Assembly: GCF_013315695.1 (NCBI RefSeq)
Contig: NZ_CP054353.1
DNA: 64,000 nucleotides
Reading direction: 5' to 3' (one strand)
Source of the DNA: Escherichia coli
Lineage (GTDB): Bacteria; Pseudomonadota; Gammaproteobacteria; Enterobacterales; Enterobacteriaceae
Part shown: positions 1 through 33,710 of the stretch, in pieces
Position numbering within the stretch: position 1 is the first letter of the stretch
Layout of the letters: every line of letters starts with the position of its first letter
Position numbers and translations under genes: made by a program
Notes under the pieces: generated by a model
What the model saw: the letters and a program-made list of their open reading frames with translations, nothing else
What the model was told of the DNA's origin: nothing
Database searches by the model: none

Positions 1-215
1 TGTGACGCTGGCAGGCTCTGCCACGGAATATCCGGTGAAGTACCACCGCTGCGCTTTACGGTGAGTTTTTCGAAGCTCTCCAGCGTCGAGAAGGAGAGAC
101 TGCATTCGGGATTGTTGCACTGGTAGAGCTTCTGCCGGACAGTGCGTGAGTCGTTCGCGGCGCGGCTTGTGCGGGTGCGCGTGCTCGCACCACAAAAAGG
201 ACACGGAAAAGACAT
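1..215 (-). CDS. ogr: Ogr/Delta-family zinc-finger late-gene activator, 3' end runs off the window
   Basis: Minus-strand ATG at 215..213 preceded by AAGGAGG; translation MSFPCPFCGASTRTRTSR...YQCNNPECSLSF has C-x2-C...C-x4-C spacing like P2 Ogr; no stop reached before position 1. Confidence 0.6.
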   Translation of the reverse strand, partial: MSFPCPFCGASTRTRTSRAANDSRTVRQKLYQCNNPECSLSFSTLESFEKLTVKRSGGTSPDIPWQSLPAS

Positions 216-267
216 GACGGAGACCTCCTTTTTTTCATGAAGGTGAATCTCCGTGATTTTATTCCTG

Positions 268-1383
268 TTATTCCTGTTGCGCTATCCATTCAGGAATTTT
301 TAATTCCAGCTCAAGCCGCGTGGTGAAGCCGCTGTCGTCGATGTTGTGCTCCACCTTCGCCAGTACCCAGTCCTCCGCGTCGATGTCACTCTTGAAACCG
401 GATACCGTGCCGCGCATTTCGGGGTACAGGTCGGGGCGACCGCGTGCCAGCGTGATGGAGAACTCAGCCGCGCCGCGCTGTAGCTGCTGCCATTTTGCCG
501 CCGCTGCACGGCGTGCGGCCTCCTCGTTTTTGAAGGTTTTACGCATGACGTACACATTGCCGTCTGCGCCCTCCATGTAATCCCCCTCGCGGCTGCTGCT
601 TTTCTCCTTTTTTGTTTTTTGGGCAGAACCACGTTTTGTCACGCTGACTTTTTTCTTTTTGCCAAAGTCCAGATCCAGCCAGTAAGCGCGCACCCCCGTG
701 TACGCCTGCCGGTCTGCAATGCGGAAGTGATGGCTGTCACCGCTGCTGCGGGTGATGGCGAATGAGGGCAGCGGCTTTCCGCTGGCGCTCACCCCCTGTC
801 CGGGCACGATGAAAAGCAGGGCACCGTTTTTGACGGTGGCGATGGCGCCCAGCATGTCCGCCATGCGCGTGAGAAACGAGATGTCACTTTCCTCCGTCTG
901 GTCGGCGTGGTCGATTTCCACCTCTGCCAGCGAGGCGCTGATTTGTGCCTTCAGTCCGTAGCGGTACGCGATGGCAGAAACAACCTGTCCCACCGTCACG
1001 TCATGCCAGGACACTTCACGCTTCACGTTGAACTCCTGCCGGAAGTCTGCGCTGCTGGCCGTGATGGTGAGCCTATCCGGTGGTCCCTCATGTGTCACCT
1101 CGTCAACGATGAAGGTTCCCTTGTCTGTCAGCGCCTCACCTTTCCAGCCCAGCGCCAGACCCAGCGTCTGTCCGCGCTTCGGGAGTTGCACTCCGCCGTC
1201 GCAGTCGTCAATCGTGAGGGTTAACTGGTCCGCCTCAAATCCCCGGTTGTCGGTCATCGCCAGCGAGATGACCCGTCGGGTCAGCGCCGCGTTTTCCGTG
1301 CCCTTAACCGTGATGGAAAAATCAGGGATCTTCACGCACTCTGACAGACCGTTCAGGTATCCGCTTACGTCCGCAGGGTTCAT
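268..1383 (-). CDS. D: Tail protein D (late control gene D homologue)
   Basis: Translation from MNPADVSGYLNGLSECVKIP aligns by eye with P2 gpD (GWKGEALTDKG, SWHD, SFLTR, RAAQAKW..LQRG motifs); start chosen at internal ATG 1383 rather than track start 1566. Confidence 0.85.
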   Translation of the reverse strand: MNPADVSGYLNGLSECVKIPDFSITVKGTENAALTRRVISLAMTDNRGFEADQLTLTIDDCDGGVQLPKRGQTLGLALGWKGEALTDKGTFIVDEVTHEGPPDRLTITASSADFRQEFNVKREVSWHDVTVGQVVSAIAYRYGLKAQISASLAEVEIDHADQTEESDISFLTRMADMLGAIATVKNGALLFIVPGQGVSASGKPLPSFAITRSSGDSHHFRIADRQAYTGVRAYWLDLDFGKKKKVSVTKRGSAQKTKKEKSSSREGDYMEGADGNVYVMRKTFKNEEAARRAAAAKWQQLQRGAAEFSITLARGRPDLYPEMRGTVSGFKSDIDAEDWVLAKVEHNIDDSGFTTRLELELKIPEWIAQQE

Positions 1384-1455
1384 CGCAATTTCTCCGTCTG
1401 TGTCTTCGTCCGGCGAAATACTCCCACGCGCACGGAGGCGCTGTAATCCTGCGTA

Positions 1456-1481
1456 TGTTGTCGGAGAACGGTGAGAACAGG
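1456..1481 (+). promoter_or_regulatory. Candidate Ogr-dependent late promoter element upstream of FI
   Basis: TGTTGTCGGAGAACGGTGAGAACAGG lies about 65 bp upstream of FI start; a near-identical 26-mer (23 of 26 positions) recurs upstream of P at 20014..20039. Confidence 0.4.
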
Positions 1482-1545
1482 CAGCGCGTGAATGCGGGGC
1501 TGTTTTTCGGGAGGATGTCGCCACACAAAACACCAGGAGGTGCTC

Positions 1546-2727
1546 ATGAGTGAAACACGCTTTCACGGTGCACGCGTCAAAGAAAACACCGACCTTGTGA
1601 CCGCGATTAATGACATTGATTCCAGTGTCATCGGTATCGTGGCCACGGCGGACGATGCAGACAGCGACGCGTTCCCGTTAAACAAACCCGTATTGATCAC
1701 CCGCGTGGCGAATGTGCTGGGTAAGGCAGGCACAACAGGCACGCTGTACAAAACGCTCAAGGCGATTTCCGACCAGACCAGCCCGAAGGTTATCGTGGTG
1801 CGTGTGGCTGAAGCCGGAGAGGAAGGTGAGACACAGGATCAGCTTGTCATCGGTGGCTCGCAGGCTGACGGCAGCTACACGGGCATGTATGCCCTGCTGG
1901 TTGCTGAACAGGACGAGAGCATTGGTTACCGCCCGCGCATTCTGGCGGCTCCCGGCCTGGATACCGAAGCAGTCACATCCGCCCTGTGCGTCATTGCGGA
2001 CAAGCTCCGCGCCTTTGTGTACGCCGGATGTAACGGGTGCGACACGATGGCGGAGGCAATCACTTACCGTGCGAAGTTCTCCGCGCGTGAGCTGATGCTG
2101 CTGTGGCCTGACTTCATTGCCTACAACCCGGTGAGCGGAAATAACGAAACATTTCCGGCAGCGGCGTATGCGTGCGGGTTGCGTGCGCGGATTGACAGTG
2201 AACAGGGCTGGCACAAGTCACTGTCCAACGTGGCGCTGAAAAATGTTCTCGGTATGTCGCAGCAGGTGTTCTGGTCGTTGCAGGCCGAAGACAGTGATGC
2301 GAACAACCTGAACAACAAGGAAATCACCACGATTATTCGCCGTAACGGCTTCCGCTTCTGGGGGAACCGTACTGCCGAAACCAGCGACTACATCTTTGAG
2401 GTGTACACGCGCACAGCGCAGATTCTGGCAGATACCATCGCTGAGGCGCAGTTCGAAACCATTGACGAACCGCTGACCCCGGCGAACGTGAAGGACGTGA
2501 TTAGCGCCATCCGCGCAAAACTCAACGCCCTGGTCACCGCCGGGAAACTCATCGGTGCGGAGTGCTGGTATGACGTGCTGGACAACGGCACGACGGATTT
2601 GCGTCAGGGGCGCGTGCGCATCCGCTACAAGTACACGCCAGTGCCGCCGATGGAAGATCTGACGCTGTATCAGACCTTCACGGATGAGTATTTCGACTCC
2701 GCTTTTGCAACGCTGGGAGGTGCGTAA
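1546..2727 (+). CDS. FI: Contractile tail sheath protein FI
   Basis: MSETRFHGARV...FPLNKPVLI...GFRFWGNRT...YTPVPPMEDLTL closely resembles P2 FI; RBS GGAGG upstream of ATG 1546. Confidence 0.9.
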   Translation: MSETRFHGARVKENTDLVTAINDIDSSVIGIVATADDADSDAFPLNKPVLITRVANVLGKAGTTGTLYKTLKAISDQTSPKVIVVRVAEAGEEGETQDQLVIGGSQADGSYTGMYALLVAEQDESIGYRPRILAAPGLDTEAVTSALCVIADKLRAFVYAGCNGCDTMAEAITYRAKFSARELMLLWPDFIAYNPVSGNNETFPAAAYACGLRARIDSEQGWHKSLSNVALKNVLGMSQQVFWSLQAEDSDANNLNNKEITTIIRRNGFRFWGNRTAETSDYIFEVYTRTAQILADTIAEAQFETIDEPLTPANVKDVISAIRAKLNALVTAGKLIGAECWYDVLDNGTTDLRQGRVRIRYKYTPVPPMEDLTLYQTFTDEYFDSAFATLGGA

Positions 2728-3243
2728 ATGGCTGTACCACGTTACGTTCGCCAGTTCACGCTGTTTGTGAACGGCAAAAACAAAATCGGCACGGTGACAG
2801 GCGTCACTCTGCCCAAGCTGACCCGAAAAACCGAAGCCTATCGCGGTGGCGGGATGCTGGGTGCGGTGCATATTGACCTCGGACTGGATGACGGCGCACT
2901 GGATGCCTCGTTCACCACCGGTGGGGTTGAAAAAGAGCTGCTCCAGGAATACGCCACTGACATTAACGAAGTGGCGCTGCGCTTTGTGGGTGAGCTGTTC
3001 ACCGATGGTGAGGAAAGTCAGCTCCTTGAGGTGGAGATGCGCGGACGCATCACGGAAATCGACCGTGGCGAAACCAAACAGGGCGACACCACACAGTACA
3101 CCTTCGCCGTCAAAAACACCTACTACAAGGAGTCGGTGGATGACAGTGATGTGACAGAAATCGACCTGCTGAACTTCATCTACAAAAAAGACGGCCAGAA
3201 CGTCTTTGGTGACCGCGTGAGTTCGGCGCTCGGTCTGAACTGA
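2728..3243 (+). CDS. FII: Tail tube protein FII
   Basis: 171-aa ORF immediately after FI, as in the P2 FI-FII pair; size matches P2 FII. Confidence 0.85.
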   Translation: MAVPRYVRQFTLFVNGKNKIGTVTGVTLPKLTRKTEAYRGGGMLGAVHIDLGLDDGALDASFTTGGVEKELLQEYATDINEVALRFVGELFTDGEESQLLEVEMRGRITEIDRGETKQGDTTQYTFAVKNTYYKESVDDSDVTEIDLLNFIYKKDGQNVFGDRVSSALGLN

Positions 3244-3289
3244 CAGCATTAACAGGGCGGCACATTGTGCCGCCACAGGAGAAAGAAAA

Positions 3290-3673
3290 ATGGCAGCAAA
3301 GAAAGATGACATCATGAACAGCGAAATCGTCGCAGGTGACACCACCACTGAAAACATCGATGTGGCAGAGGAAAAAACGGGGGTGAAGTTATCCTGCCCG
3401 GTGGTGCGTGGCGAACGCGTTATTGACTACGTGGAGATTGGCGAGGAAATCCGTCAGGCAGGCTCGTTGCGCGGGCTGTCTCTGATTGAGGTGCTGAACC
3501 TCAAAACGGACCCGATGATGACGCTGCTTTCGCGCGTGACCGCACCACGCCTGAAGCTGGCAGAAATCCAGACACTGGACACCGGTGATTTCGTGGCGCT
3601 GGCGACTATGGCTGCGAATTTTTTTGCTCCCACGGAGTCTGCGAAACCGTCCGTGGCGGTGATGGAAGCGTAA
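3290..3673 (+). CDS. E: Tail assembly chaperone E
   Basis: Position between tube and tape measure; contains a run of seven T followed by G at 3619..3626, matching the P2 E/E' slippery site type. Confidence 0.75.
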   Translation: MAAKKDDIMNSEIVAGDTTTENIDVAEEKTGVKLSCPVVRGERVIDYVEIGEEIRQAGSLRGLSLIEVLNLKTDPMMTLLSRVTAPRLKLAEIQTLDTGDFVALATMAANFFAPTESAKPSVAVMEA

Positions 3674-3836
3674 TCACGCTGGCGAAGTTCGACAACGTTG
3701 AAGAACTGGTCGCTGATATAGCAGTCGTGTTTAACTGGTCGCCCGGCGAGATATTCTCAATGCCTCTCGTCGAGGTGATGAGCTGGCGTGAGCGGGCGGC
3801 GCAACGTAGCGGAGTCCGCAACAGTGAAATCCCTTG
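3290..3836 (+). CDS. E': E+E' fusion product predicted from -1 programmed frameshift at 3619..3626
   Basis: After a -1 slip on the T-run, the frame stays open to TGA at 3834..3836 and encodes ...VITLAKFDNVEELVADIAVVFNWSPGEIFSMPL..., resembling the conserved P2 E' extension. Confidence 0.55.
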
Positions 3837-6800
3837 ATATTCGTGTCAGCTTTGGCGCAATTGACCGGCTGACATGCCCGACCGAAAACGCCCGCCGTCA
3901 GGTGGGCGCTCTCACTGAATCCCTTCAGAAGACGCAGAACAACATACAGGCGCTCGACAGACAGTCGAAGGTGTTCGATCGTGCCGCCGGAAATCTCAGT
4001 AAATACCGCGAACAGATTGCCCGCGCGGAGCAGAGGCTCGCCGGGCTGCGAAAGGCAGAGCAGAACGGTAACATCCTCTCCGAAAAGCAGCGCGAAACGC
4101 TGGCGGCACTCTCCGCGCGGCTTGAGCGCCTGAACGAGCTGCGCACGCGCGAGCGCGAAAAACTCCAGGCGGCGGCTGGCGAAATGCGTAAACATGGCAT
4201 TCTGCTTTCCGGCAGCAGCCGCACCATCGAAAGTGCCGTTCGTCGCACGCAGCAGTACAACGAGCAGCTCGAGCGTGAACGGCAGGCTCTGGCTCGCGTG
4301 ACGCAGGCACAGAGCCGCTATGAGGCCGCGAAGGCACAGGCGGAAAAACTGCGCAACACAGGGGCTGTGGCGATGGCGGCGGGTACAGGCGGCCTGTATG
4401 CGGCGCAGCGCATGATGGCTCCGGCGATGGAGTCCGAACAGCACGGTGCGGTCATCGCAGCCGGTTCGGGGGAAGGCGCACAGGATGGCGCACGTTACAC
4501 CCACATCATCCGTAACATACAGGCTGACGGTCTCGCTGATTTTGCCGGTGCTGCGGAGGCCGTGAGTGCGGTACGCAGCACGCTCGGCGCACTGGGCGAC
4601 ACCGGTGACAGGGAGCTTGAGCGCATCAGCCGTCGTGCGCTGGATATGCGGACCGTCTTTGGTGTTGATGTGCCGCAGAGCATTCAGGCCGCTGCCATCA
4701 TGATGAAGAACGGGCTGGCCGCCAGCAGTGACGAGGCTACTAACCTGATGACGGCAGGGATGCAGCGCATGTCCGCTGAAATGCGCGATGAACTGCCGGA
4801 AATTCTGCATGAGTATTCCACCCACTTCCGCAACATGGGCTTCACCGGCAGCGAGACAATGAGTCTGCTGGTTGAGATGGCAAAGCAGGGCAAGTTTGCG
4901 CTGGACAAAACCGGCGATGCCGTGAAGGAGTTCAGTATCCGTGGTTCGGATATGTCGAAATCCAGTGTTTCAGCGTATGAGACACTTGGCCTGAATGCCG
5001 AACGGGTGTCTGCTGCCATTGCTCAGGGGGGCAGTACCGCACGCCAGGCGATGCAGGTGACCGCCCGTGCACTGCTGGCCATCCGTGACCCGGCAGAGCG
5101 GGCGAACACGGCCATTGCGTTATTCGGCACCCCCGTTGAAGACCTTTCCGTTGACCAGATCCCGCAGTTCCTGAGGGCGCTGGCTGATGTTCGTGACAAT
5201 CTGGGCGATGTCACCGGTGTGGCAGACCGCATGGGGCAGACGCTGCGCGGTAATCTCTCCGGCGATATTCAGGCGCTGAGTGGTGCGTTCTCAGGGCTAC
5301 GCACGGACATCTTCGGTACTGTGACCGAGGATTTGCGCGGGCTGGTTCAGACGGTGAGCGCGTGGGTGACCCGGATGCGCGAATGGGTCGGAGAGCATCA
5401 GGCGCTGGTCAGGGTGCTGGTACTGGCGGGCGGGAGTGTTCTGGCGCTGTCTTCTACGTTCGGTGCGCTGTCACTGACGCTCGGGCTGATTGCGGGGCCG
5501 CTGGCAAAACTGCAACTGGGACTGGGGCTGCTGACGGGGGGCGGCGGCATTGGTGGTGCTGTCCGGCTTGTGTCTGCGATGGCGCTGCGCCTGACGGGGC
5601 TGCCTGCGCTGTGGGGGCTGGTCACGGGGGCGGTGTCGGTACTGGGTGGTGCAGTGGGGGCGCTGTTCAGCCCGGTCGGGCTGATTGTTGCCGCCCTGGT
5701 GGGCGGCGCGGTTCTGGTGTGGAAATACTGGGATCAGATCAGTGCGTTTTTTTCCGGCTTTTTTGCCGGAGTGTGGGAGGCGCTGCAACCGCTGCGGGAA
5801 GCCTTTGCGTCGCTGGCTCCGGTGTTCGGGCTGATTGGCGATGGCATCAAAGCCGTGTGGGAATGGTTCACCCGCCTGCTTGAACCTGCAAACGCCTCAA
5901 AAGAGACACTCGACAAATGCACCAGCGCCGGGGAGTCGTTCGGGAAAACGCTGGGGTGGGTCATTCAGAACATTGTGCTGGGGCCGCTGACACTGCTTCT
6001 TGATGGCCTCGGCACAGTGCTGAAGTGGCTGGGTGTTATCCCGGATGGCATCAGGGAAGCGCAGAAGGAGACGCAAAAACTCCAGGAGAGCGCCGCAAAA
6101 CAGGCCACACAAAAAGCGCCGGTTGCGTGGGAGTGGGATCCTGCACAGAAAAAAATGGTGCAGAAAACATGGTCGTGGTCATCAGATGCAGCGGAAAACA
6201 ACGGTGACAATAAACCCGCAATACCTGCCCCTGCGGTTCCCGGAGAGGTGAAGGGAACGTCAGACAATCCGGTCGGCAAACCCGGTAGTAAATCCCCGCT
6301 GGATGAGGCATGGTTCCGGCAGGGGATACAGAAAACCGCCAGCAACACCGGCGGGCTGCTTGAGGAAACCAAAAAACGTACTGGTCCCGGCGATATTGTT
6401 TTCAAAAACCTGCCCGGACCCGAAATCATTCACGGCGAGTGGAAAGCACCGCAGGTTATCCGGACAGTGCAGGCGGTATCGGCGGGCGGAGGACTGGCGG
6501 ATGCGCTGACAACGCTCTGGCAGAAACTCACCGGAAGACAGACTGCTTCACCCGTTCCGGTCGTGAATATTCCTGCGCCAGTGGAGAGAGTGGCACGTCA
6601 GGTATCCACGCTGCCACAGCCGCAGCACAACGAGGCAAATACAGAACTGGTTGCCGGTATTCAGCGCGTGCATGAGGCTGTGAACAGTCCGGGGGGAGAG
6701 ACGGTATCGCCTCCACCTGTGGTGAACGTTCTGATGCCAGCAGTGAATGTTCCTGCGCCAGTGGTGAGTGTGGCGCGTCAGGTATCCACGCTGCCGCAGC

Positions 6801-7288
6801 ACAACGAGGCAAATACAGAACTGGTTGCCGGTATTCAGCGTGTGCATGAGGCGGTGAACAGTCCGGGTGGAGAGACGGTATCGCCTCCACCTGTGGTGAA
6901 CGTTCTGATGCCAGCAGTGAATGTTCCTGCGCCAGTGGTGAGCGTGGCCCGTCAGGTATCCACGCTGCCGCAGCACAACGAGGCAAATACAGAGCTGGCT
7001 GCCGGTATTCAGCGCGTGCGTGAGGCTGTGAACAGTCCGGGTGGAGATGTGGCTTTATCTGTTCCTGTTGCGGAGGTTATCCGTCCACCGCTGCGACCGG
7101 AGTCCGTCAAAAAAGAAACCGCGCCACAAACGCAGGCTGCGGTATTTTCCGGTGAGATACACGTGCATCTGCACAACGTCAACACGCAGAATCCGCGTGA
7201 ACTGGCAAAACTGGTTGGCGAGGCTGTCCGCGAAGAGATGCGCAGACAGGTGCGTACAGGCATGAACAGCTTCCGTGACAGGGACTAA
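3788..7288 (+). CDS. T: Tail tape measure protein T
   Basis: 1166-aa ORF after E/E' with coiled-coil N-terminal part, Gly/Ala/Leu-rich hydrophobic core and internal tandem repeats; start codon uncertain (GTG 3788 or a downstream GTG). Confidence 0.85.
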   Translation: MSGRRNVAESATVKSLDIRVSFGAIDRLTCPTENARRQVGALTESLQKTQNNIQALDRQSKVFDRAAGNLSKYREQIARAEQRLAGLRKAEQNGNILSEKQRETLAALSARLERLNELRTREREKLQAAAGEMRKHGILLSGSSRTIESAVRRTQQYNEQLERERQALARVTQAQSRYEAAKAQAEKLRNTGAVAMAAGTGGLYAAQRMMAPAMESEQHGAVIAAGSGEGAQDGARYTHIIRNIQADGLADFAGAAEAVSAVRSTLGALGDTGDRELERISRRALDMRTVFGVDVPQSIQAAAIMMKNGLAASSDEATNLMTAGMQRMSAEMRDELPEILHEYSTHFRNMGFTGSETMSLLVEMAKQGKFALDKTGDAVKEFSIRGSDMSKSSVSAYETLGLNAERVSAAIAQGGSTARQAMQVTARALLAIRDPAERANTAIALFGTPVEDLSVDQIPQFLRALADVRDNLGDVTGVADRMGQTLRGNLSGDIQALSGAFSGLRTDIFGTVTEDLRGLVQTVSAWVTRMREWVGEHQALVRVLVLAGGSVLALSSTFGALSLTLGLIAGPLAKLQLGLGLLTGGGGIGGAVRLVSAMALRLTGLPALWGLVTGAVSVLGGAVGALFSPVGLIVAALVGGAVLVWKYWDQISAFFSGFFAGVWEALQPLREAFASLAPVFGLIGDGIKAVWEWFTRLLEPANASKETLDKCTSAGESFGKTLGWVIQNIVLGPLTLLLDGLGTVLKWLGVIPDGIREAQKETQKLQESAAKQATQKAPVAWEWDPAQKKMVQKTWSWSSDAAENNGDNKPAIPAPAVPGEVKGTSDNPVGKPGSKSPLDEAWFRQGIQKTASNTGGLLEETKKRTGPGDIVFKNLPGPEIIHGEWKAPQVIRTVQAVSAGGGLADALTTLWQKLTGRQTASPVPVVNIPAPVERVARQVSTLPQPQHNEANTELVAGIQRVHEAVNSPGGETVSPPPVVNVLMPAVNVPAPVVSVARQVSTLPQHNEANTELVAGIQRVHEAVNSPGGETVSPPPVVNVLMPAVNVPAPVVSVARQVSTLPQHNEANTELAAGIQRVREAVNSPGGDVALSVPVAEVIRPPLRPESVKKETAPQTQAAVFSGEIHVHLHNVNTQNPRELAKLVGEAVREEMRRQVRTGMNSFRDRD
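6560..7060 (+). repeat. About 2.7 tandem copies of an in-frame ~174-bp unit inside T
   Basis: Peptide unit PAPVVSVARQVSTLPQHNEANTELVAGIQRVHEAVNSPGGETVSPPPVVNVLMPAVNV repeats near 6565, 6747 and 6921; the first copy carries an extra PQ. Confidence 0.8.
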
Positions 7289-7301
7289 AGGAGACGCAAT
7301 T

Positions 7302-7760
7302 ATGATGATGATTTTTGGCATGTTTGTGTTTGAACTGAAAACGCTGCCGCATCAACAGATTCAACAAAACAAAACGTGGCGGCATGTGAAAAATGAGCGA
7401 ATCAACCGTTCTGCGGCCTGGCAGTATATTGGCGCAGGTGACGACCAGATCACGCTGTCCGGTCTGCTGTACCCGGAAATTACCGGCGGTGAGGTGTCGC
7501 TGACACTGCTGAACACCCAGGCCTACACCGGATGTCCCTGGCCGCTGATTGATGGTACGGGGCAGATTTACGGAATGTACGTGATTACGGGATTACAGAC
7601 CACCCGCTCCGAACTGGATCGCTACGGGAAGGCAAAAAAGATTGAGTTCTCCATCAGCTTTCAGCGGTGTGATGAGGATATGCGGGAGAGGCTTCAGTCT
7701 GCTTCTGCAGGTGATTTACTGAACACGCTTAAAGACAAAATGGCGATAGCGGCATTCTGA
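7302..7760 (+). CDS. U: Tail protein U
   Basis: MMMIFGMFVFELKTLPHQQ...DDQITLSGLLYPEITGG... resembles P2 gpU; RBS AAGGAG before ATG 7302. Confidence 0.85.
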   Translation: MMMIFGMFVFELKTLPHQQIQQNKTWRHVKNERINRSAAWQYIGAGDDQITLSGLLYPEITGGEVSLTLLNTQAYTGCPWPLIDGTGQIYGMYVITGLQTTRSELDRYGKAKKIEFSISFQRCDEDMRERLQSASAGDLLNTLKDKMAIAAF

Positions 7761-7769
7761 ATAAAAAAA

Positions 7770-7796
7770 GAGGGAGTGTAAAAAGCACTCCCTTAT
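7770..7796 (+). terminator. Hairpin terminator candidate after U
   Basis: AGGGAGTG-loop-CACTCCCT followed by a T-containing tail. Confidence 0.45.
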
Positions 7797-7882
7797 TGCC
7801 TTCATGGAAAAGAAGCAAATGTTGTCAATACATTCTGACTATATATAAATCGCCCGATGAAGGCAATGGTGATGTTCGGGAA

Positions 7883-7908
7883 ATAAAAAAGCCCTCACAA
7901 AGAGGGCG
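7883..7908 (-). terminator. Rho-independent terminator candidate (minus strand)
   Basis: GCCCTC-ACAAA-GAGGGC preceded on the plus strand by an A8 run, i.e. hairpin plus U-run on the minus strand. Confidence 0.5.
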
Positions 7909-8070
7909 GCATGCATTGTGTGAAGATTTAATTTTTCTGCTTGCAGGGGGATTATATTGAACGGTATTCATTCAATGCAATATTTTTAATTGTCATTATC
8001 ATTAATGAAAATGTTTCTTGTGTTTTTGTTGCTCTGATTACAATCCCGTTTATTACTGTGTCTTTGCGGC

Positions 8071-8097
8071 AAAAAAAAAGCCCGCACGGGGCGGGCA
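8071..8097 (-). terminator. Rho-independent terminator candidate (minus strand), just downstream of the decayed G
   Basis: GCCCGC-ACGG-GGCGGG hairpin with an A9 run on the plus strand (U-run on minus). Confidence 0.6.
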
Positions 8098-8140
8098 AAG
8101 AATGTTTGCATGTGTAGAACAGTGCGGGATTATAAATATA

Positions 8141-8711
8141 TTATGCGTTCTGAAAAGTCCCCTTTGATGGAGATTCAGGCCATACCAGCGCATTATAACA
8201 ATCTTTATTCATCACGGAAGTGAACGTCAACTGCTGAAGTTCCCTAATATATTCAATCCACGTAGCCAACCTTCCCTTGTCTGCATTGCTGATGGTGCCG
8301 GGCAATAACTCAGATTGCCAGATTCTGATCCTCTCTTTTGCCTCCGGCAGCAGGGGATTTCGTTGTCATTCTGCTTTAGCCTGCCACTTTTCAGGTGGCA
8401 GCACATGACGAACAATATTTTCATCATCAAATATCCAGTTACCTGAGTCATCAGCACGTTGGTTAGCGTTAATATCAGAAGTATTAACAACACTAAAACC
8501 GACATGATTAAGTGTTGATGCCTCTCTGGTAATGGTGACAATAATATTATTTCGTTGTAAATCATTTTGATTTTATCTGGTCGAAAGGTCCCTGCTTCGT
8601 TATGTCAGTTTTATCGCCTTCAGAGGAAACCAGATTACTTTGTGCTTCTTTTTCTAACACATACAGTCCCGGAGTTAATATTGCCTGTTTTATGTTCTTG
8701 AGTGCATCATA
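8141..8711 (-). pseudogene. G: Decayed tail fibre assembly gene G (frameshifted, with an early in-frame stop)
   Basis: Minus-strand translations in two frames give NNIIVTITREASTLNHVGFSVVNTSDINANQRADDSGNWIFDDENIV and ...ADKGRLATWIEYIRELQQL...VWPESP, resembling P2 gpG; the N-terminal part reads MMHSRT-stop. Confidence 0.6.
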
Positions 8712-8767
8712 TTAATCTCTTACATATTGTATCTGGTGAAATTTATAATTTTCTGAAGCTGCCTGAA

Positions 8768-8898
8768 AGAATTGAGTTTCCTGCAGGCTTTCAATGGTGT
8801 GATGAGGATATGTGGGAGAAACTCCAGTCTGCTCCTGCAGGGGGGGCTTACTGAACACTATCAAAGACAAATCTTCGTCGTTGATCGCATTCCCTTAA
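8768..8898 (+). pseudogene. Diverged second copy of the 3' end of tail gene U (fragment)
   Basis: DNA is homologous to 7631..7760 (roughly four-fifths identical by eye, TGTGATGAGGATATG core conserved), with a G7 run causing a frame break; the 5' part of U is absent. Confidence 0.6.
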
Positions 8899-8903
8899 CC
8901 TGA

Positions 8904-8938
8904 CGCCACCACCCCACACAGATGACGGGGTGGTGGCG
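8904..8938. terminator. Strong GC hairpin between the U fragment and the tail-fibre operon
   Basis: CGCCACCACCCC-loop-GGGGTGGTGGCG perfect 12-bp stem; no clear U-run, so terminator function is uncertain. Confidence 0.35.
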
Positions 8939-8943
8939 TGATT

Positions 8944-9240
8944 TCACCAGTAACTAACCAGCAGCCAGAACAACAGGCATATTGCCACTGGTGCAGCAAA
9001 ATCCATCAGGCTTCCGGCATCCCACACGCGCGGATCAAAACCACCCCACCAGGGCATGTTAATTCGTTTCCCTTTCCCGAATTTTTCAATCCAGCGATAT
9101 TCTGCCTGGGTGTGTTCACGCGCAATGAAGAACGAGCAACCGGCTATCGCTCCGTAAACCCAGTTTCCCGTAAGAATGCCAGCCAGTACCTGCGCAGCCA
9201 CGGCACAAAGTGCATGAAGGACAGGCGTTATATCCATCAC
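8944..9240 (-). CDS. Small two-TM membrane protein of unknown function, last gene of the tail-fibre operon
   Basis: 98-aa ORF with hydrophobic N- and C-terminal segments; GGGAGG RBS 9 bp upstream; co-directional with and immediately downstream of H and orf92. Confidence 0.6.
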   Translation of the reverse strand: MMDITPVLHALCAVAAQVLAGILTGNWVYGAIAGCSFFIAREHTQAEYRWIEKFGKGKRINMPWWGGFDPRVWDAGSLMDFAAPVAICLLFWLLVSYW

Positions 9241-9249
9241 TCCCTCCCT

Positions 9250-9528
9250 TCAGCTCCATTCCCGAAGCGGTGCTTCCAGCTCCACCACATAATCAGAGAA
9301 CACAGAAACATCAAACGTATCATCAAGAATACGAATGTTGACAAAATAACCGTCATTCCGGATACAGACAGGTTCTCCCTCTTCATTTTCCCCTGTTTCT
9401 GTATAGGTGAAACCAATTTCATCGACTAACAGTTTGTTCTGGAGGTCTTCATTTTCCTCCCAGCCAAGAGATGACAGGAGGGCTTTAAACTGCTGTTTGT
9501 CATGAAACTTCAAAGTCAAATCTTTCAT
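9250..9528 (-). CDS. Acidic 92-aa protein translationally coupled to tail fibre H (candidate non-canonical fibre chaperone)
   Basis: ATGA start/stop overlap with H at 9525..9528; no resemblance to P2 gpG noticed; occupies the position G holds in P2. Confidence 0.55.
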   Translation of the reverse strand: MKDLTLKFHDKQQFKALLSSLGWEENEDLQNKLLVDEIGFTYTETGENEEGEPVCIRNDGYFVNIRILDDTFDVSVFSDYVVELEAPLREWS

Positions 9529-11306
9529 ATTGCCTCTCTTAATTGCCTGTCATTTAATTCTTTATGCCATATGCGGAAATTACGAATGTGACCAAACAGA
9601 TGTCGTTCTCCAGTACTCGTTCGCCCTCCAATACGGATAATTGCGGAGTTCTGAATATATGACCATGTGGTTTTTGTTTCGCCGGATAACCGTCCGTTAC
9701 TGACTGAGCATGTAGACTGATCTGACTTTACTCGCATCCCTATAACCATTTTTTCAAGTGATGCGTTTTCGTTTACCCGCATGTTAGCCCCGCCTATATC
9801 GCAATAAGGAAATCCGTCGTAATCCGTCGAACGACCGAATCCAAGAATAATTTCCTCTCCAGTTTGATGACCACTGGTATTAAGAACACGCGGTGCTGCA
9901 TTTGGCGTTTTATACCAGTTCTTATGTACCTCACAAAGAACAGTAAAAGGAGGATTATAAAGATTATTCTTAACCGGAACTGTCACAATATCACTTGCAC
10001 GTGTTGCTGGTGTTGCACCCGATATAATAAATGATGATGCGCAGGGGCCATTTTCAACCTGAGGGGTGGACAGGAAAACATAATCTCCTGATTCAACGAC
10101 ACCACCTTCTTTCGGAGTGTATTGTATTGCCGATGTTATGTAGGACTCATCAATTGCCTGAATCGTTGCCTCTGCAAAAATCCAGCCGGTAACCTCATCT
10201 TTGTTAACTCGGGCAGTGATCCTGTCGGCAGCTCCTCCTGTGATTTTAACTGATAAAGATCGCGTATTAACAATGGCATATCCAAGGTTAGATGATGTGT
10301 TGCCATCGTAAGATTCAAACCTGATCCTTAACATGAGTTCCAGATCAGTTTTAAATCTGCACGATGTCGTCACGCACTTATTATCGCCTGAAACATCGAC
10401 GGCTCCGGTTACTGCAACTGATGCCATGTTAACAGGCAGGGACTGCCCAATCAGAGAATCGTTACAGACGAACTTTCCATAGGTAAAACCAGAACTGTCC
10501 GTCCCGGTTTCGGGAACATCCATATTTACCGACTTGCCCCAGTTGACCGGGGTTTCCGAATTGAGCATGTAGTTTGTTCTTTGCCCTTCAATAAGCAGTC
10601 CATCGCGTTCAAATCGCGGCTCATTAATTTCAGCTATTTTCAGTTCACCGGATTTATTGATATAGGTTGCCGTTGATGCGCGACTGAAACTAACCTGTTT
10701 ATCACTGGCAACCTGAACCACATCGTCACCAATGGTGATTTTTTTATAGCCCGGTGCGAACCCCGTAAGCATATCCAGTGAATCGTTAAACGGTATCCAC
10801 ACATCAGGCAGCGGCGGTACAGACTCCTTTTCCTGCGCAACATATTCTTCAACATAGGCGCGGGTGGCGAGCACGACAGAGGGATCAACTTTCAGTTCGA
10901 CAGACGAAGCACTGGAAACCACAACAATCATGCGAATCGTCTGCGTGCGCCCGCTTCCCTCGGTGAGTACAGGCTTGTAGGTTTCGGGGCAGTTCGCCAC
11001 GGCAATCATCACGCCGTCGCTGTCAAAAAGCCCAATCTCGCGGATCCAGAACCCCCCTTTATCTTCCGGGATAATCATCTCGGCGATAAGCTGGCTGGCA
11101 TCAGACGCGCTGATGCTCAGTTGATTCAATGGGGCGCTGTATACCGTGTTCACCAGATTTTCCATGGAAGCCTCCGGTTCCGGCAGGCTGCCGCCGCCAT
11201 CCCCCAGTTTCATGGTGGTGATGGATATTTTCGAGCCGCTGGCCACCGCCTTTGCCAGACGGGCGGCACCCTTGTCAGTCAGAACAGAAAAATATTTTAC
11301 AGTCAT
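9525..11306 (-). CDS. H: Tail fibre protein H (conserved P2-like N-terminus, divergent C-terminal region)
   Basis: N-terminus ...ITTMKLGDGGGSLPEP...WIREIGLFDSDGVMIAVANCPETYKP...SGRTQTIRMIVVVSSASSVELKVDPSVVLATRAYV matches P2 gpH; the rest is unrelated, as expected for a receptor-binding part. Confidence 0.85.
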   Translation of the reverse strand: MTVKYFSVLTDKGAARLAKAVASGSKISITTMKLGDGGGSLPEPEASMENLVNTVYSAPLNQLSISASDASQLIAEMIIPEDKGGFWIREIGLFDSDGVMIAVANCPETYKPVLTEGSGRTQTIRMIVVVSSASSVELKVDPSVVLATRAYVEEYVAQEKESVPPLPDVWIPFNDSLDMLTGFAPGYKKITIGDDVVQVASDKQVSFSRASTATYINKSGELKIAEINEPRFERDGLLIEGQRTNYMLNSETPVNWGKSVNMDVPETGTDSSGFTYGKFVCNDSLIGQSLPVNMASVAVTGAVDVSGDNKCVTTSCRFKTDLELMLRIRFESYDGNTSSNLGYAIVNTRSLSVKITGGAADRITARVNKDEVTGWIFAEATIQAIDESYITSAIQYTPKEGGVVESGDYVFLSTPQVENGPCASSFIISGATPATRASDIVTVPVKNNLYNPPFTVLCEVHKNWYKTPNAAPRVLNTSGHQTGEEIILGFGRSTDYDGFPYCDIGGANMRVNENASLEKMVIGMRVKSDQSTCSVSNGRLSGETKTTWSYIQNSAIIRIGGRTSTGERHLFGHIRNFRIWHKELNDRQLREAI

Positions 11307-13320: not shown

Positions 13321-13898
13321 TGCGGGCCTCCTGTGCTGTCACCGCCGCTCTTCACGCCACTGTGTTTGTGCGTGTGCAGCGTCACACCGTTTGAGGTGAA
13401 ATCACCGCCGCTGTGCGAGATACTGCCACTCATGGTTCCGCCTTCTGTCACCTCAATCGTTGTCGTCTTCAGATGGTTTGTGCAGGTGACGGTGGGGGTA
13501 TCCAGCGTCACGCCTGTTCCGGCCTGAATGGTGGCAGTTTTGATTCCGCTGGCGCTCAGTGCGCCAGCGTCCGCATCGTAGCGGAACACCGCGCCGTCAG
13601 GCGCTGTAACCACGATTTCCGTCAGGCTGCTGCCGGGCGCCGGATGTTCGCTGCTCCAGAGACTGCCGATGACGGACGCGGTCGCGGGGTCGCCACCGAT
13701 GCAGGCAATCATGACCTGTTCGCCCACGGCAGGCGGCAGCCAGACGCTGAACGCGCCCGCGCGTGGTGTGTTCCAGCGCAGCCAGTCGGTTTCCAGCTCT
13801 CCGCTGCGCACGCGAACGCGCCACGTTGTTTCGTCCACGGCAAAAATCACGCCCGTGCGGATGATATTTGCAAGCAGTCGCATGATTTCCGCTGTCAT
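13317..13898 (-). CDS. V: Baseplate spike protein V
   Basis: 193-aa ORF at the P2 V position, Gly/Thr/Ser-rich C-terminus. Confidence 0.8.
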   Translation of the reverse strand: MTAEIMRLLANIIRTGVIFAVDETTWRVRVRSGELETDWLRWNTPRAGAFSVWLPPAVGEQVMIACIGGDPATASVIGSLWSSEHPAPGSSLTEIVVTAPDGAVFRYDADAGALSASGIKTATIQAGTGVTLDTPTVTCTNHLKTTTIEVTEGGTMSGSISHSGGDFTSNGVTLHTHKHSGVKSGGDSTGGPQ

Positions 13899-32735: not shown

Positions 32736-33710
32736 ATGAGCATAAAATCAATTCCGGGAGGATATCTTCTTGACATGCGCCCGGAGGGGCGTAAAGGCAA
32801 ACGCATTCGTAAAAAATTTAAAACGAAATCGGATGCAGTTTTATATGAGCGGTGGGTGCTGGCGCAACAGCATAACAATGAGTGGAAAGGAAACTCCATT
32901 GATCGCCGTCCGCTGTCAGTGCTTATTGACTTGTGGTGGAAATACCACGGTCAGCTAATGAAGTCAGGGCATAACACGCGCCTTAAATTGCTGCGCTTGA
33001 GTGAGGCAATGGATGACCCGTGCGTGCATAAACTTAATACAACGATGCTCACCGAGCTACGTGTGTCCAGGATAGAGCAGGGGATACAGCCCAGCACCAT
33101 AAATCGAGAGATTGGGGCGTTAAGCGCGATGTTTACCGCACTCATCTCATCCGGCCATTTTCTTAACGATAACCCCGTTCAAGGCCTTAAAGGAATGAAG
33201 GTTAACGAGCGCGAAATGGGATATCTGAGTAAGTCTGAATGTGTTCAGTTGCTGGATGCACTGGCTGAAAATCCCGATGAACGGCTGGCTGTCGAAATCC
33301 TTCTGTCGACCGGGGCGCGATGGGGCGAGGTAGCGGCACTGGAGCAGCGCCGTGTTCTTCATTGTCGAATCACTTTTTCAAAAACGAAGAACAGCAAAAA
33401 CCGTACCGTTCCTATTTCTGAAAGCCTGTTTGAAAAGATCAAAAAACGGGGCGGGAAACTGGTGTTTCCGACGCTGGATTATCCATTGGTTCGCGATGTC
33501 ATCAAAACGGTCGCACCTGATGTTCCTGACGGCCAGGCTGTTCATGCGCTGCGCCACACCTTCGCCAGTCATTTCATGATGAACGGCGGCAATATTCTGA
33601 CGCTCCAGAAAATTCTGGGGCACGCAAAGATTCAGACAACGATGATTTATGCCCATCTTGCGCCGGATTACTTGCAGGATGCGGTGAGATTTAATCCTAT
33701 TGCTGGGTAA
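32736..33710 (+). CDS. int: Tyrosine integrase
   Basis: ...LSTGARWGEVAAL...HALRHTFASHFMMNGGNILTLQKILGHAKIQTTMIYAHLAPDYLQDAV closely resembles P2 Int. Confidence 0.9.
   Translation: MSIKSIPGGYLLDMRPEGRKGKRIRKKFKTKSDAVLYERWVLAQQHNNEWKGNSIDRRPLSVLIDLWWKYHGQLMKSGHNTRLKLLRLSEAMDDPCVHKLNTTMLTELRVSRIEQGIQPSTINREIGALSAMFTALISSGHFLNDNPVQGLKGMKVNEREMGYLSKSECVQLLDALAENPDERLAVEILLSTGARWGEVAALEQRRVLHCRITFSKTKNSKNRTVPISESLFEKIKKRGGKLVFPTLDYPLVRDVIKTVAPDVPDGQAVHALRHTFASHFMMNGGNILTLQKILGHAKIQTTMIYAHLAPDYLQDAVRFNPIAG

Follow-up and report, generated by a model that had tools for sequence, protein, structure and literature searches.

Judging from its gene content and sequence similarity, the analysed stretch of E. 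coli DNA (64 kb, hereafter the window) contains a P88-like prophage that is related to Xuanwuvirus (family Peduoviridae); the right-hand part is covered, and the left prophage end falls outside the window. Its tail genes FI, FII, E/E', T and U are inverted relative to the gene order of phage P2, and sequence comparison indicates that this inversion is derived, lineage-wide and inherited. The resulting gene order is the standard layout of the very common P88 group and is compatible with infectious particles. As a known layout of this group the finding is ordinary and opens no new question. A reading in which the inherited inversion is combined with a bidirectional late promoter in the spacer between D and FI appears very probable from the sequence data described below.

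The window carries the contractile-tail gene set of the P2-like phages (Peduoviridae), that is FI, FII, E/E' with a -1 frameshift, T, U and D (Table 1), and all of these tail genes are full length when compared with P88. In a profile search, the translation of the ogr-like gene matched the Pfam family Ogr_Delta (PF04606) with 51.1 bits (cut-off 26.3). A listed ORF at 56..289 was rejected as ogr, since it is in the wrong frame and has no Pfam match; the true ogr start is at 215. The D protein shares 73% identity with P88 D (residues 13-366) and 49% with P2 D, and FI shares 85% identity with its P88 counterpart. P88 E' matches 3688..3828 of the E' frame. The tape measure protein T is about 1160 amino acids long (1166 in the comparison with P88, where T has 935), and the T region contains 2.8 copies of a tandem repeat with a 174-bp unit (6563..7047). 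The N-terminal sequence MMMIFGMFVF of U lines up with the start of P2 U, and ATG 7302 is the likely start codon rather than GTG 7275. At its end (7760) U converges on minus-strand fibre genes, which end near 8944, whereas the starts of D and FI diverge, back to back, from a spacer of exactly 162 bp (1384..1545). The earlier note had assigned the gene identities and strands correctly and had given the exact coordinates of this spacer, but it described the divergent D and FI starts as facing each other; the ATG of ogr lies at 215 rather than 216. The interval between U and the fibre genes bears recombination scars: a tail-fibre-assembly gene is truncated there, and the 3' end of U occurs in duplicate. 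A small ORF in this region (8227..8565) had no match in Pfam, PHROGs or PADLOC, and its sole tblastn match was to the C-terminal part of P88 gpG.

Table 1. Annotated genes and predicted regulatory elements of the window.
Feature	Position	Strand	Basis or remark
ogr-like late activator gene	1..215	-	cut by the left window end; 71 codons visible, begins MSFPCPFCG
D (tail/baseplate hub protein)	268..1383	-	Pfam Phage_GPD, phrog_52; 371 aa, intact
FI, tail sheath	1546..2727	+	Pfam Phage_sheath_1, Gp18_domIII_N, Phage_sheath_1C
FII, tail tube	2728..3243	+	Pfam Phage_tube, E-value 3e-46
E	3290..3673	+	phrog_103 tail protein
E'	-1 frame from T7 slippery run 3619..3625, on to ~3828	+	frame translations
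T, tape measure protein	~3788..7288, start within 3788-3824	+	Pfam PhageMin_Tail, P88 T match
U, tail protein, final gene of the plus-strand block	7302..7760	+	Pfam Phage_P2_GpU, E-value 9e-40
Predicted ogr promoter, minus-10-like hexamer	256..261	-	TAAAAT just past the D stop codon
Predicted pD extended minus-10	1418..1426	-	TG-G-GAGTAT; predicted transcript start near 1411
Predicted shared activator (Ogr) box	1456..1478, centre 1467	.	TGTTGT-N11-GAGAAC = TGT-N12-AGA
Predicted pF minus-10 hexamer	1511..1516	+	GAGGAT; predicted transcript start near 1523
GC-rich hairpin, terminator-like	7771..7793	.	directly 3' of U; terminator scan
Two more terminator-like hairpins, likewise where the F and fibre operons converge	7891..7907, 8080..8096	.	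terminator scan
Second activator box	20014..20036	.	divergent O/P spacer

In the P2 reference genome (NC_001895), FI, FII, E, E', T, U, D and ogr are co-directional and the stop codon of U touches the start of D. In contrast to this Peduovirus order, U is located on the plus strand of the window and D on the minus strand. The arrangement found is that of P88-type phages, with D-ogr divergent from FI over a spacer of about 160 bp and U converging on the fibre genes. Since it is FI..U that has been inverted with respect to P2, D-ogr remains on the same strand as the genes for head, baseplate and fibres, and FI..U reads in the opposite direction. The inversion described in the earlier note is borne out by both the gene calls and NC_001895. 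In a search with a concatenated U+D query, 396 of 535 phage records had U next to D in the same direction; these records span Peduovirus and phages of Ralstonia, Burkholderia, Pseudomonas and Aeromonas. This adjacency is widespread and probably ancestral, which argues that the inversion is the derived state. With an identity of at least 60% there were 46 records, and D was apart from U in all six of the matches listed.

The same gene order is found in Escherichia phage P88, Citrobacter phage PhiSM, PhiR44_2 and P884B11, as well as in Klebsiella phage 3LV2017 (Reginaelenavirus) and Enterobacter phage phiT5282H (Novemvirus), and is common to three ICTV genera (Xuanwuvirus, Reginaelenavirus and Novemvirus). 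P88 has been shown to form plaques (PMC5285337), and PhiSM both forms plaques and lysogenises (PMC6456863). FI was also divergent from D-ogr in 80 of the 80 best gpD relatives from IMG/VR (D identity 67-74%). Of 5426 complete E. coli genomes, 1356 contained the D-FI junction of P88 in a single collinear stretch, and nine contained the junction variant of the window itself. At both ends of the inverted block the window aligns collinearly with complete chromosomes of independent E. coli strains, of which TUM9803 spans 4..9598 at 92% identity. These occurrences, in particular those in P88, PhiSM and the 80 IMG/VR relatives, confirm the suggestion of a lineage-specific arrangement. A literature search found no paper that discusses this gene order, and a text search of the P88 paper (PMC5285337) found no mention of inversion, gene order or synteny.

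In P88 and PhiSM (Xuanwuvirus), 3LV2017 and phiT5282H, ogr and D occupy one strand and FI, FII, E, E', T and U the other; beyond U, the genes G/H, I, J, W, V and S return to the ogr-D strand, as they do in the window. The DNA identity between the window and the P88-type phages is mosaic, with 84-94% for the head and replication genes and about 77% for the tail block. Unlike P88 and PhiSM, the window has neither an invertase nor an invertible fibre cassette. In contrast to P88, similarity to lambdoid phages is seen in its fibre tip and in two small genes downstream, and the integrases of the window and P88 share 44% identity. P2 has in common with the window the gene set FI, FII, E/E' with its frameshift, T, U, D and ogr, together with an Ogr-type activator. 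However, in P2 the genes FI..U, D and ogr form one unit under the promoter pF, and a separate promoter, pV, is also present, whereas with FI..U inverted D needs a promoter of its own, and a pV-type box was not found in the window.

The predicted activator box is a partial dyad located centrally in the D/FI spacer. Exactly two copies occur in the 64-kb window (chance expectation 0), both in divergent late spacers. The second lies between the start codons of O (ATG 19948, minus strand) and P (ATG 20100, plus strand), and the hexamer on its P side, TAGCCT, is identical to that of P2 pP. The P2 boxes have the form TGTTGT-N11-GNNAAC, which is near the consensus TGT-N12-ACA (PMC3931495; P2 site annotation), and both boxes of the window differ from this consensus by one mismatch. 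The boxes of relatives (TGTTGT-N11-(G/C)ACAAC) match TGT-N12-ACA exactly. In the P88-type phages the D/FI spacer is about 157-162 bp long with TGTTGT-N11-GAGAAC at its centre, and a second box is located in the O/P spacer. P88 itself has two boxes in divergent late spacers, as does the window, and one extra match inside the T coding sequence. Strict and loose patterns found no third, pV-like box in the window or in P88.

A promoter scan of the spacer (1384..1545) detected no sigma-70 consensus promoter with -35 and -10 elements for D or FI. Minus-10-like hexamers are present on both sides of the box. Each of the 76 distinct related spacers has TG-n-xAxx(A/C)T on the D side, at an offset of 28-29 bp from the edge of the box, and xAxxAT on the FI side, at 32-33 bp. 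The related spacers share ancestry, and therefore these counts overstate the number of independent observations; a fairer number is that of the 20 representatives with less than 85% identity. The columns beside the hexamers vary, and the distance from the D-side hexamer to the D start codon ranges from 50 to 72 bp. Only a role of the box in D transcription would lead one to expect a hexamer that is fixed relative to the box and variable relative to the D start. The offset of the pF minus-10 equals that of P2 pF, pO and pV, the minus-10 hexamers of P2 being found at 31-33 bp from the edge of the box, and the distance between the pD hexamer and the box agrees with P2 transcript starts. In the P2 record a single activator site is annotated for pO and pP, with transcript starts 55-56 bp to either side. 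This geometry makes it most likely that D is served by a separate late promoter, which would use the shared box. The earlier suggestion that D uses an unrecognised promoter is probably right, but its premise, a late-promoter element acting only towards FI, finds no support in the central partial dyad with hexamers placed symmetrically on both of its sides, the geometry of the shared pP/pO site of P2.

Based on these observations, the 162-bp spacer would act as a bidirectional late promoter built like the pP/pO pair of P2. In this mechanism the central box would recruit an Ogr-type activator, and RNA polymerase would start about 56 bp to either side. The predicted promoter pF would serve FI..U, and the predicted pD, with its extended minus-10, would serve D. 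We infer the binding of the box by Ogr, the transcript starts and the dependence of both promoters on one box from sequence. Owing to its extended minus-10, pD could be partly activator-independent. As in P2, a separate ogr promoter just past the D stop codon is probable as well: a hexamer of the form TAnAAT occupies this position in P2, where ogr -35 and -10 elements are annotated between D and ogr, and in the D-ogr spacers of the 18 related representatives listed. Read-through from the fibre operon into D was considered as another source of transcription and appears unlikely, as some 6 kb of FI..U in antisense orientation intervene, together with three hairpins on the minus strand that resemble terminators.

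Extended minus-10 promoters of E. coli can function without a -35 element, and D could be transcribed from an activator-independent TG-n-GAGTAT promoter in the spacer with the box serving FI only. The TG upstream of the hexamer, which occurs in 76 of 76 spacers on the D side and in none of the 20 representatives on the FI side, is in line with such a promoter. However, the constant offset of 28-29 bp between hexamer and box, at D start codon distances of 50-72 bp, speaks against it, and the D-side hexamers (GACCAT, AACCAT, GATCCT and GAGTAT) are poor matches to TATAAT. Moreover, P2 pP works from the far side of a shared box with equal geometry, and we regard transcription of D independently of the box as unlikely.

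The departure from the textbook P2 order and the scars between U and the fibre genes might also point to a tail-defective prophage, left by an inversion that is recent and private to this genome or by faulty assembly. This is very improbable, as many independent complete genomes, and phages that form plaques, share these junctions, and the tail genes are all intact. The earlier note named the same order in many functional P2-like phages as the finding that would refute a rearrangement, and this is what was found; misassembly and a private rearrangement were rejected because both junctions are collinear in independent complete chromosomes and in phage genomes, and the proposed tail defect finds no support in the gene order or in tail genes that are full length relative to P88. 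The DNA invertase gene immediately after U in P88 and PhiSM raises a further explanation, in which FI..U is a programmed segment flipped by a Gin/Cin-type enzyme, yet the neighbours of the P88 invertase are fibre and assembly genes in duplicate, the usual arrangement of a host-range switch. This invertase has no match in the window, and a search of the window for the flanking sites and adjacent invertase of a Gin/Cin/Hin-type invertible segment found neither: the six pairs of inverted repeats detected were all internal, with none flanking FI..U. The orientation of FI..U was moreover identical in 85 of 85 loci examined, and a programmed switch can be considered extremely improbable.

For the inherited inversion with a bidirectional late promoter, we slightly favour the view that the inversion may be tolerated via the partly dyad box, with two bidirectional sites driving all four late operons of this lineage. 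These two activator sites may be those in the O/P and D/FI spacers. The flip of FI..U may have brought the pF box beside D, and a new extended minus-10 for pD may then have arisen at the mirror-image distance. If this is true, D, and ogr by read-through, would lie directly behind an Ogr-activated promoter, creating a short positive-feedback loop. The spacer would represent a testable second natural case of one Ogr-type site for two divergent late promoters, and an operon split by inversion without loss of regulation, a modest point for specialists on P2-family phages. For annotation, P2 is the wrong gene-order template for these prophages of E. coli, Klebsiella, Enterobacter and Citrobacter, and an inverted FI..U block should not be counted as a defect or misassembly.

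The cysteines of the ogr homologue are spaced as CX2CX24CX4C, compared with CX2CX22CX4C in P2 Ogr. Together with the right half-site AGA of the boxes, in place of ACA, which is also unlike P2, this spacing suggests that the DNA-binding specificity of the two activators may differ.

Over its left 7.8 kb, the window has ogr and D on the minus strand and FI, FII, E, T and U on the plus strand, with the start codons of D and FI back to back. Downstream of U, this plus-strand block meets convergent minus-strand fibre, baseplate, lysis and head genes. In contrast, FI, FII, E, E', T, U, D and ogr of the P2 reference (NC_001895) share one strand, and the stop codon of U touches the start of D. Gene calls against this reference bear out the inversion of FI..U relative to D-ogr described in the earlier note, with slightly corrected coordinates. 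T encodes the tape measure protein, of about 1166 aa versus 815 in P2 and 935 in P88, and contains a tandem repeat (174 bp, 2.8 copies, 93% matches, 6563-7047); at this length of the protein, the tail would be expected to exceed that of P88.

Features of the tail region and predicted late-gene control sites in the window
Feature	Position	Strand	Remark
ogr	ATG at 215, continues past window edge	-	Ogr/Delta zinc-finger; Pfam Ogr_Delta, 51 bits
TAAAAT	261 to 256	-	directly after D stop
D	268..1383	-	Pfam Phage_GPD
D/FI spacer	1384..1545		162 bp
D-side hexamer (predicted pD)	1426..1418	-	GAGTAT preceded by TG; offset 32 bp; transcript start predicted near 1411
Activator box, D/FI	1456..1481
FI-side hexamer (predicted pF)	1511..1516		GAGGAT; offset 32 bp; transcript start predicted near 1523
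FI	1546..2727	+
FII	2728..3243	+
E	3290..3673	+	T7 slippery run 3619..3625, with E' frame
T	about 3788..7288	+
U	7302..7760	+
Terminator-like hairpins	7771..7793, 7891..7907, 8080..8096	-
gpG-like ORF, truncated	8227..8565	-	tail-fibre assembly; 43% identical to P88 G residues 56-156
U 3'-end copy	about 8766..8870	+	about 105 bp, degenerate
Small gene downstream of fibre gene	8944..9240		phrog_1443
Small gene downstream of fibre gene	9250..9528		phrog_1361
H-like fibre gene	9525..11306	-	then I, J, W, V, S, R, on to N and O
Activator box, O/P	20014..20039
P and Q	from 20100	+
Integrase	about 32736..33704		44% identical to P88's

The gene order is not unusual: the inversion is genuine, and its biology is ordinary. 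The window lacks the U-D adjacency that defines the P2 order and has the features of the P88-type order. Order and strands are identical in P88, PhiSM, PhiR44_2 and P884B11, as well as in Klebsiella phage 3LV2017 (genus Reginaelenavirus) and Enterobacter phage phiT5282H (genus Novemvirus). P88 has been induced, plaque-purified, grown and engineered (PMC5285337), and PhiSM is plaque-forming, transfectable and able to lysogenise K-12 (PMC6456863). At least 571 relatives were recovered when IMG/VR was scanned with an alignment of gpD; in all of the best 80, for which the order was inspected (D 67-74% identical), FI diverges from D-ogr and U lies several kb off on the opposite strand. Among 5426 complete E. 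coli genomes, 1356 carry the P88 D|FI junction (958 bp) as a single collinear piece and nine carry the junction variant of the window (87-90% identity); one E. coli chromosome spans window positions 4..9598, both junctions included. Classified phage genomes in public records already show the arrangement; a literature search found no paper commenting on it.

Misassembly or a private rearrangement is excluded by the same order in the named phages, IMG/VR relatives and E. coli genomes. The earlier note was prepared to give up its rearrangement reading if many functional P2-like phages shared the order; they do, and we no longer hold it. Programmed inversion of FI..U is not supported: no inverted repeats flanking the block and no invertase were found in the 64 kb window, and all loci examined have a single orientation. 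P88 and PhiSM, unlike the window, have an invertase. The polarity of the change was addressed with a concatenated U+D protein query against phage records (n = 535). In 396 of these, U lies next to D on the same strand; they include Peduovirus, PSP3, L-413C, RSA1, Burkholderia, Pseudomonas, Aeromonas and more distant phages. At 60% identity or above there were 46 records, and D lies apart from U in all six of them among the matches listed. Judged from this pattern, adjacency is a broad and probably ancestral state, with the inversion a derived trait of a single enterobacterial clade.

The D/FI spacer carries TGTTGTCGGAGAACGGTGAGAACAGG, a predicted P2-type (Ogr) activator site (box), and the only other match in the window is a near-identical 26-mer in the divergent O/P spacer (none expected by chance). 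P88 also has two boxes, located in the corresponding spacers. The core reads TGTTGT-N11-GAGAAC in the window and TGTTGT-N11-(G/C)ACAAC in relatives, whose box matches the P2 late-promoter consensus TGT-N12-ACA (PMC3931495); the window boxes have AGA in place of ACA. The annotated P2 sites share the form of the window box (pO/pP, TGTTGT-N11-GCCATC; pF, GGTTGT-N11-GCCAAC; pV, TGTTGT-N11-ACAAAT), and a single annotated P2 site serves both pO and pP, with transcript starts 56 and 55 bp from its centre on either side. The cysteine spacing of the Ogr homologue (window 1-270) is CX2CX24CX4C versus CX2CX22CX4C in P2.

Measured from the box edge, the hexamers of P2 pF, pO, pP and pV (GAAAAT, GAAACT, TAGCCT and CAATCT) lie at 31-33 bp and the mapped transcript starts of the P2 annotation at 43-46 bp. 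The window has candidate hexamers at matching offsets on both sides of the box, and the 14-mers around them, GGGAGGATGTCGCC (FI side) and GGGAGTATTTCGCC (D side), mirror each other about 1467. All 76 distinct D/FI spacers, which reduce to 20 representatives below 85% identity, show TG-n-xAxx(A/C)T on the D side (offset 28 or 29) and xAxxAT on the FI side (offset 32 or 33), while the columns flanking the hexamers vary and the distance from box to D start codon ranges from 50 to 72 bp. This is the pattern predicted for a box-dependent promoter, in which the hexamer keeps its distance from the box but not from the start codon.

Thus, the view that the element points only towards FI is not supported, since mirrored hexamers are conserved on both sides of the box. 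Most likely, late transcription starts in both directions from the spacer and relies on a single activator site common to both, so that D would be reached through predicted pD and FI..U through predicted pF. A minor alternative is that D has an extended minus-10 promoter that works independently of the activator, as favoured by the TG motif specific to the D side. A simple sigma-70 scan of the spacer found no promoter. Read-through from the fibre operon into D is unlikely because three terminator-like hairpins intervene between that operon and U. In its predicted late gene control the feature resembles P2, and in gene order it follows the P88 group; we infer the shared box as a small new point.

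The O/P spacer has the same layout, and its P-side hexamer, TAGCCT, equals that of P2 pP. We placed the O start at ATG 19948 (MADKKPE...), behind a GAGGAGG ribosome-binding site and supported by promoter geometry, versus 20101 in the mechanical ORF list; P starts with ATG. S and V overlap (13895-13898), leaving no separate pV. With only two boxes in the prophage, as in P88, the O side of the O/P box may drive head, lysis, baseplate and fibre genes together as a single, very long operon. The hexamer after the D stop recurs as TAnAAT in P2 and in the 18 listed representative spacers of relatives, and it is there, between D and ogr, that the ogr promoter of P2 is annotated. The gene has therefore probably retained a start-up promoter of its own, and would in addition be reached from pD. 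A stem of 7 bp, formed by 248..254 and 217..223, encloses the ogr ribosome-binding site; many relatives have another conserved hairpin at this position, GGGAGTTCAACTCCC.

By sequence comparison the prophage is P88-like, with a full-length counterpart for every P88 structural protein. DNA identity to P88, PhiSM, PhiR44_2, Chuche and others is 84-94% for head and replication genes and about 77% for the tail block. This tail divergence from P88 and the occurrence of the junction variant in only nine complete E. coli genomes mark it as a new, fairly divergent member of the P88 group. The repressor is 36% identical to that of P88. Right of about 34223 the sequence is E. coli chromosome, 100% identical to complete genomes; the junction adjoins the ydiS/fadK/ppsA region, whereas in TUM9803, the closest tail relative, the prophage adjoins copA, so that the two differ in integration site.

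The fibre gene has an N-terminal collar domain of P2 H type, and the DNA from 8955 to about 9600, which covers the two small genes downstream, is about 88% identical to lambdoid phages; lambdoid-like DNA following a P2 H-type collar suggests that a host-range cassette has been swapped. Between U and the fibre genes lies a gap (7761-8940) that, with its three hairpins, truncated gpG-like ORF and U 3'-end copy, looks like a recombination scar. It is AT-rich, and the interval 8001-10000 has 44% GC.
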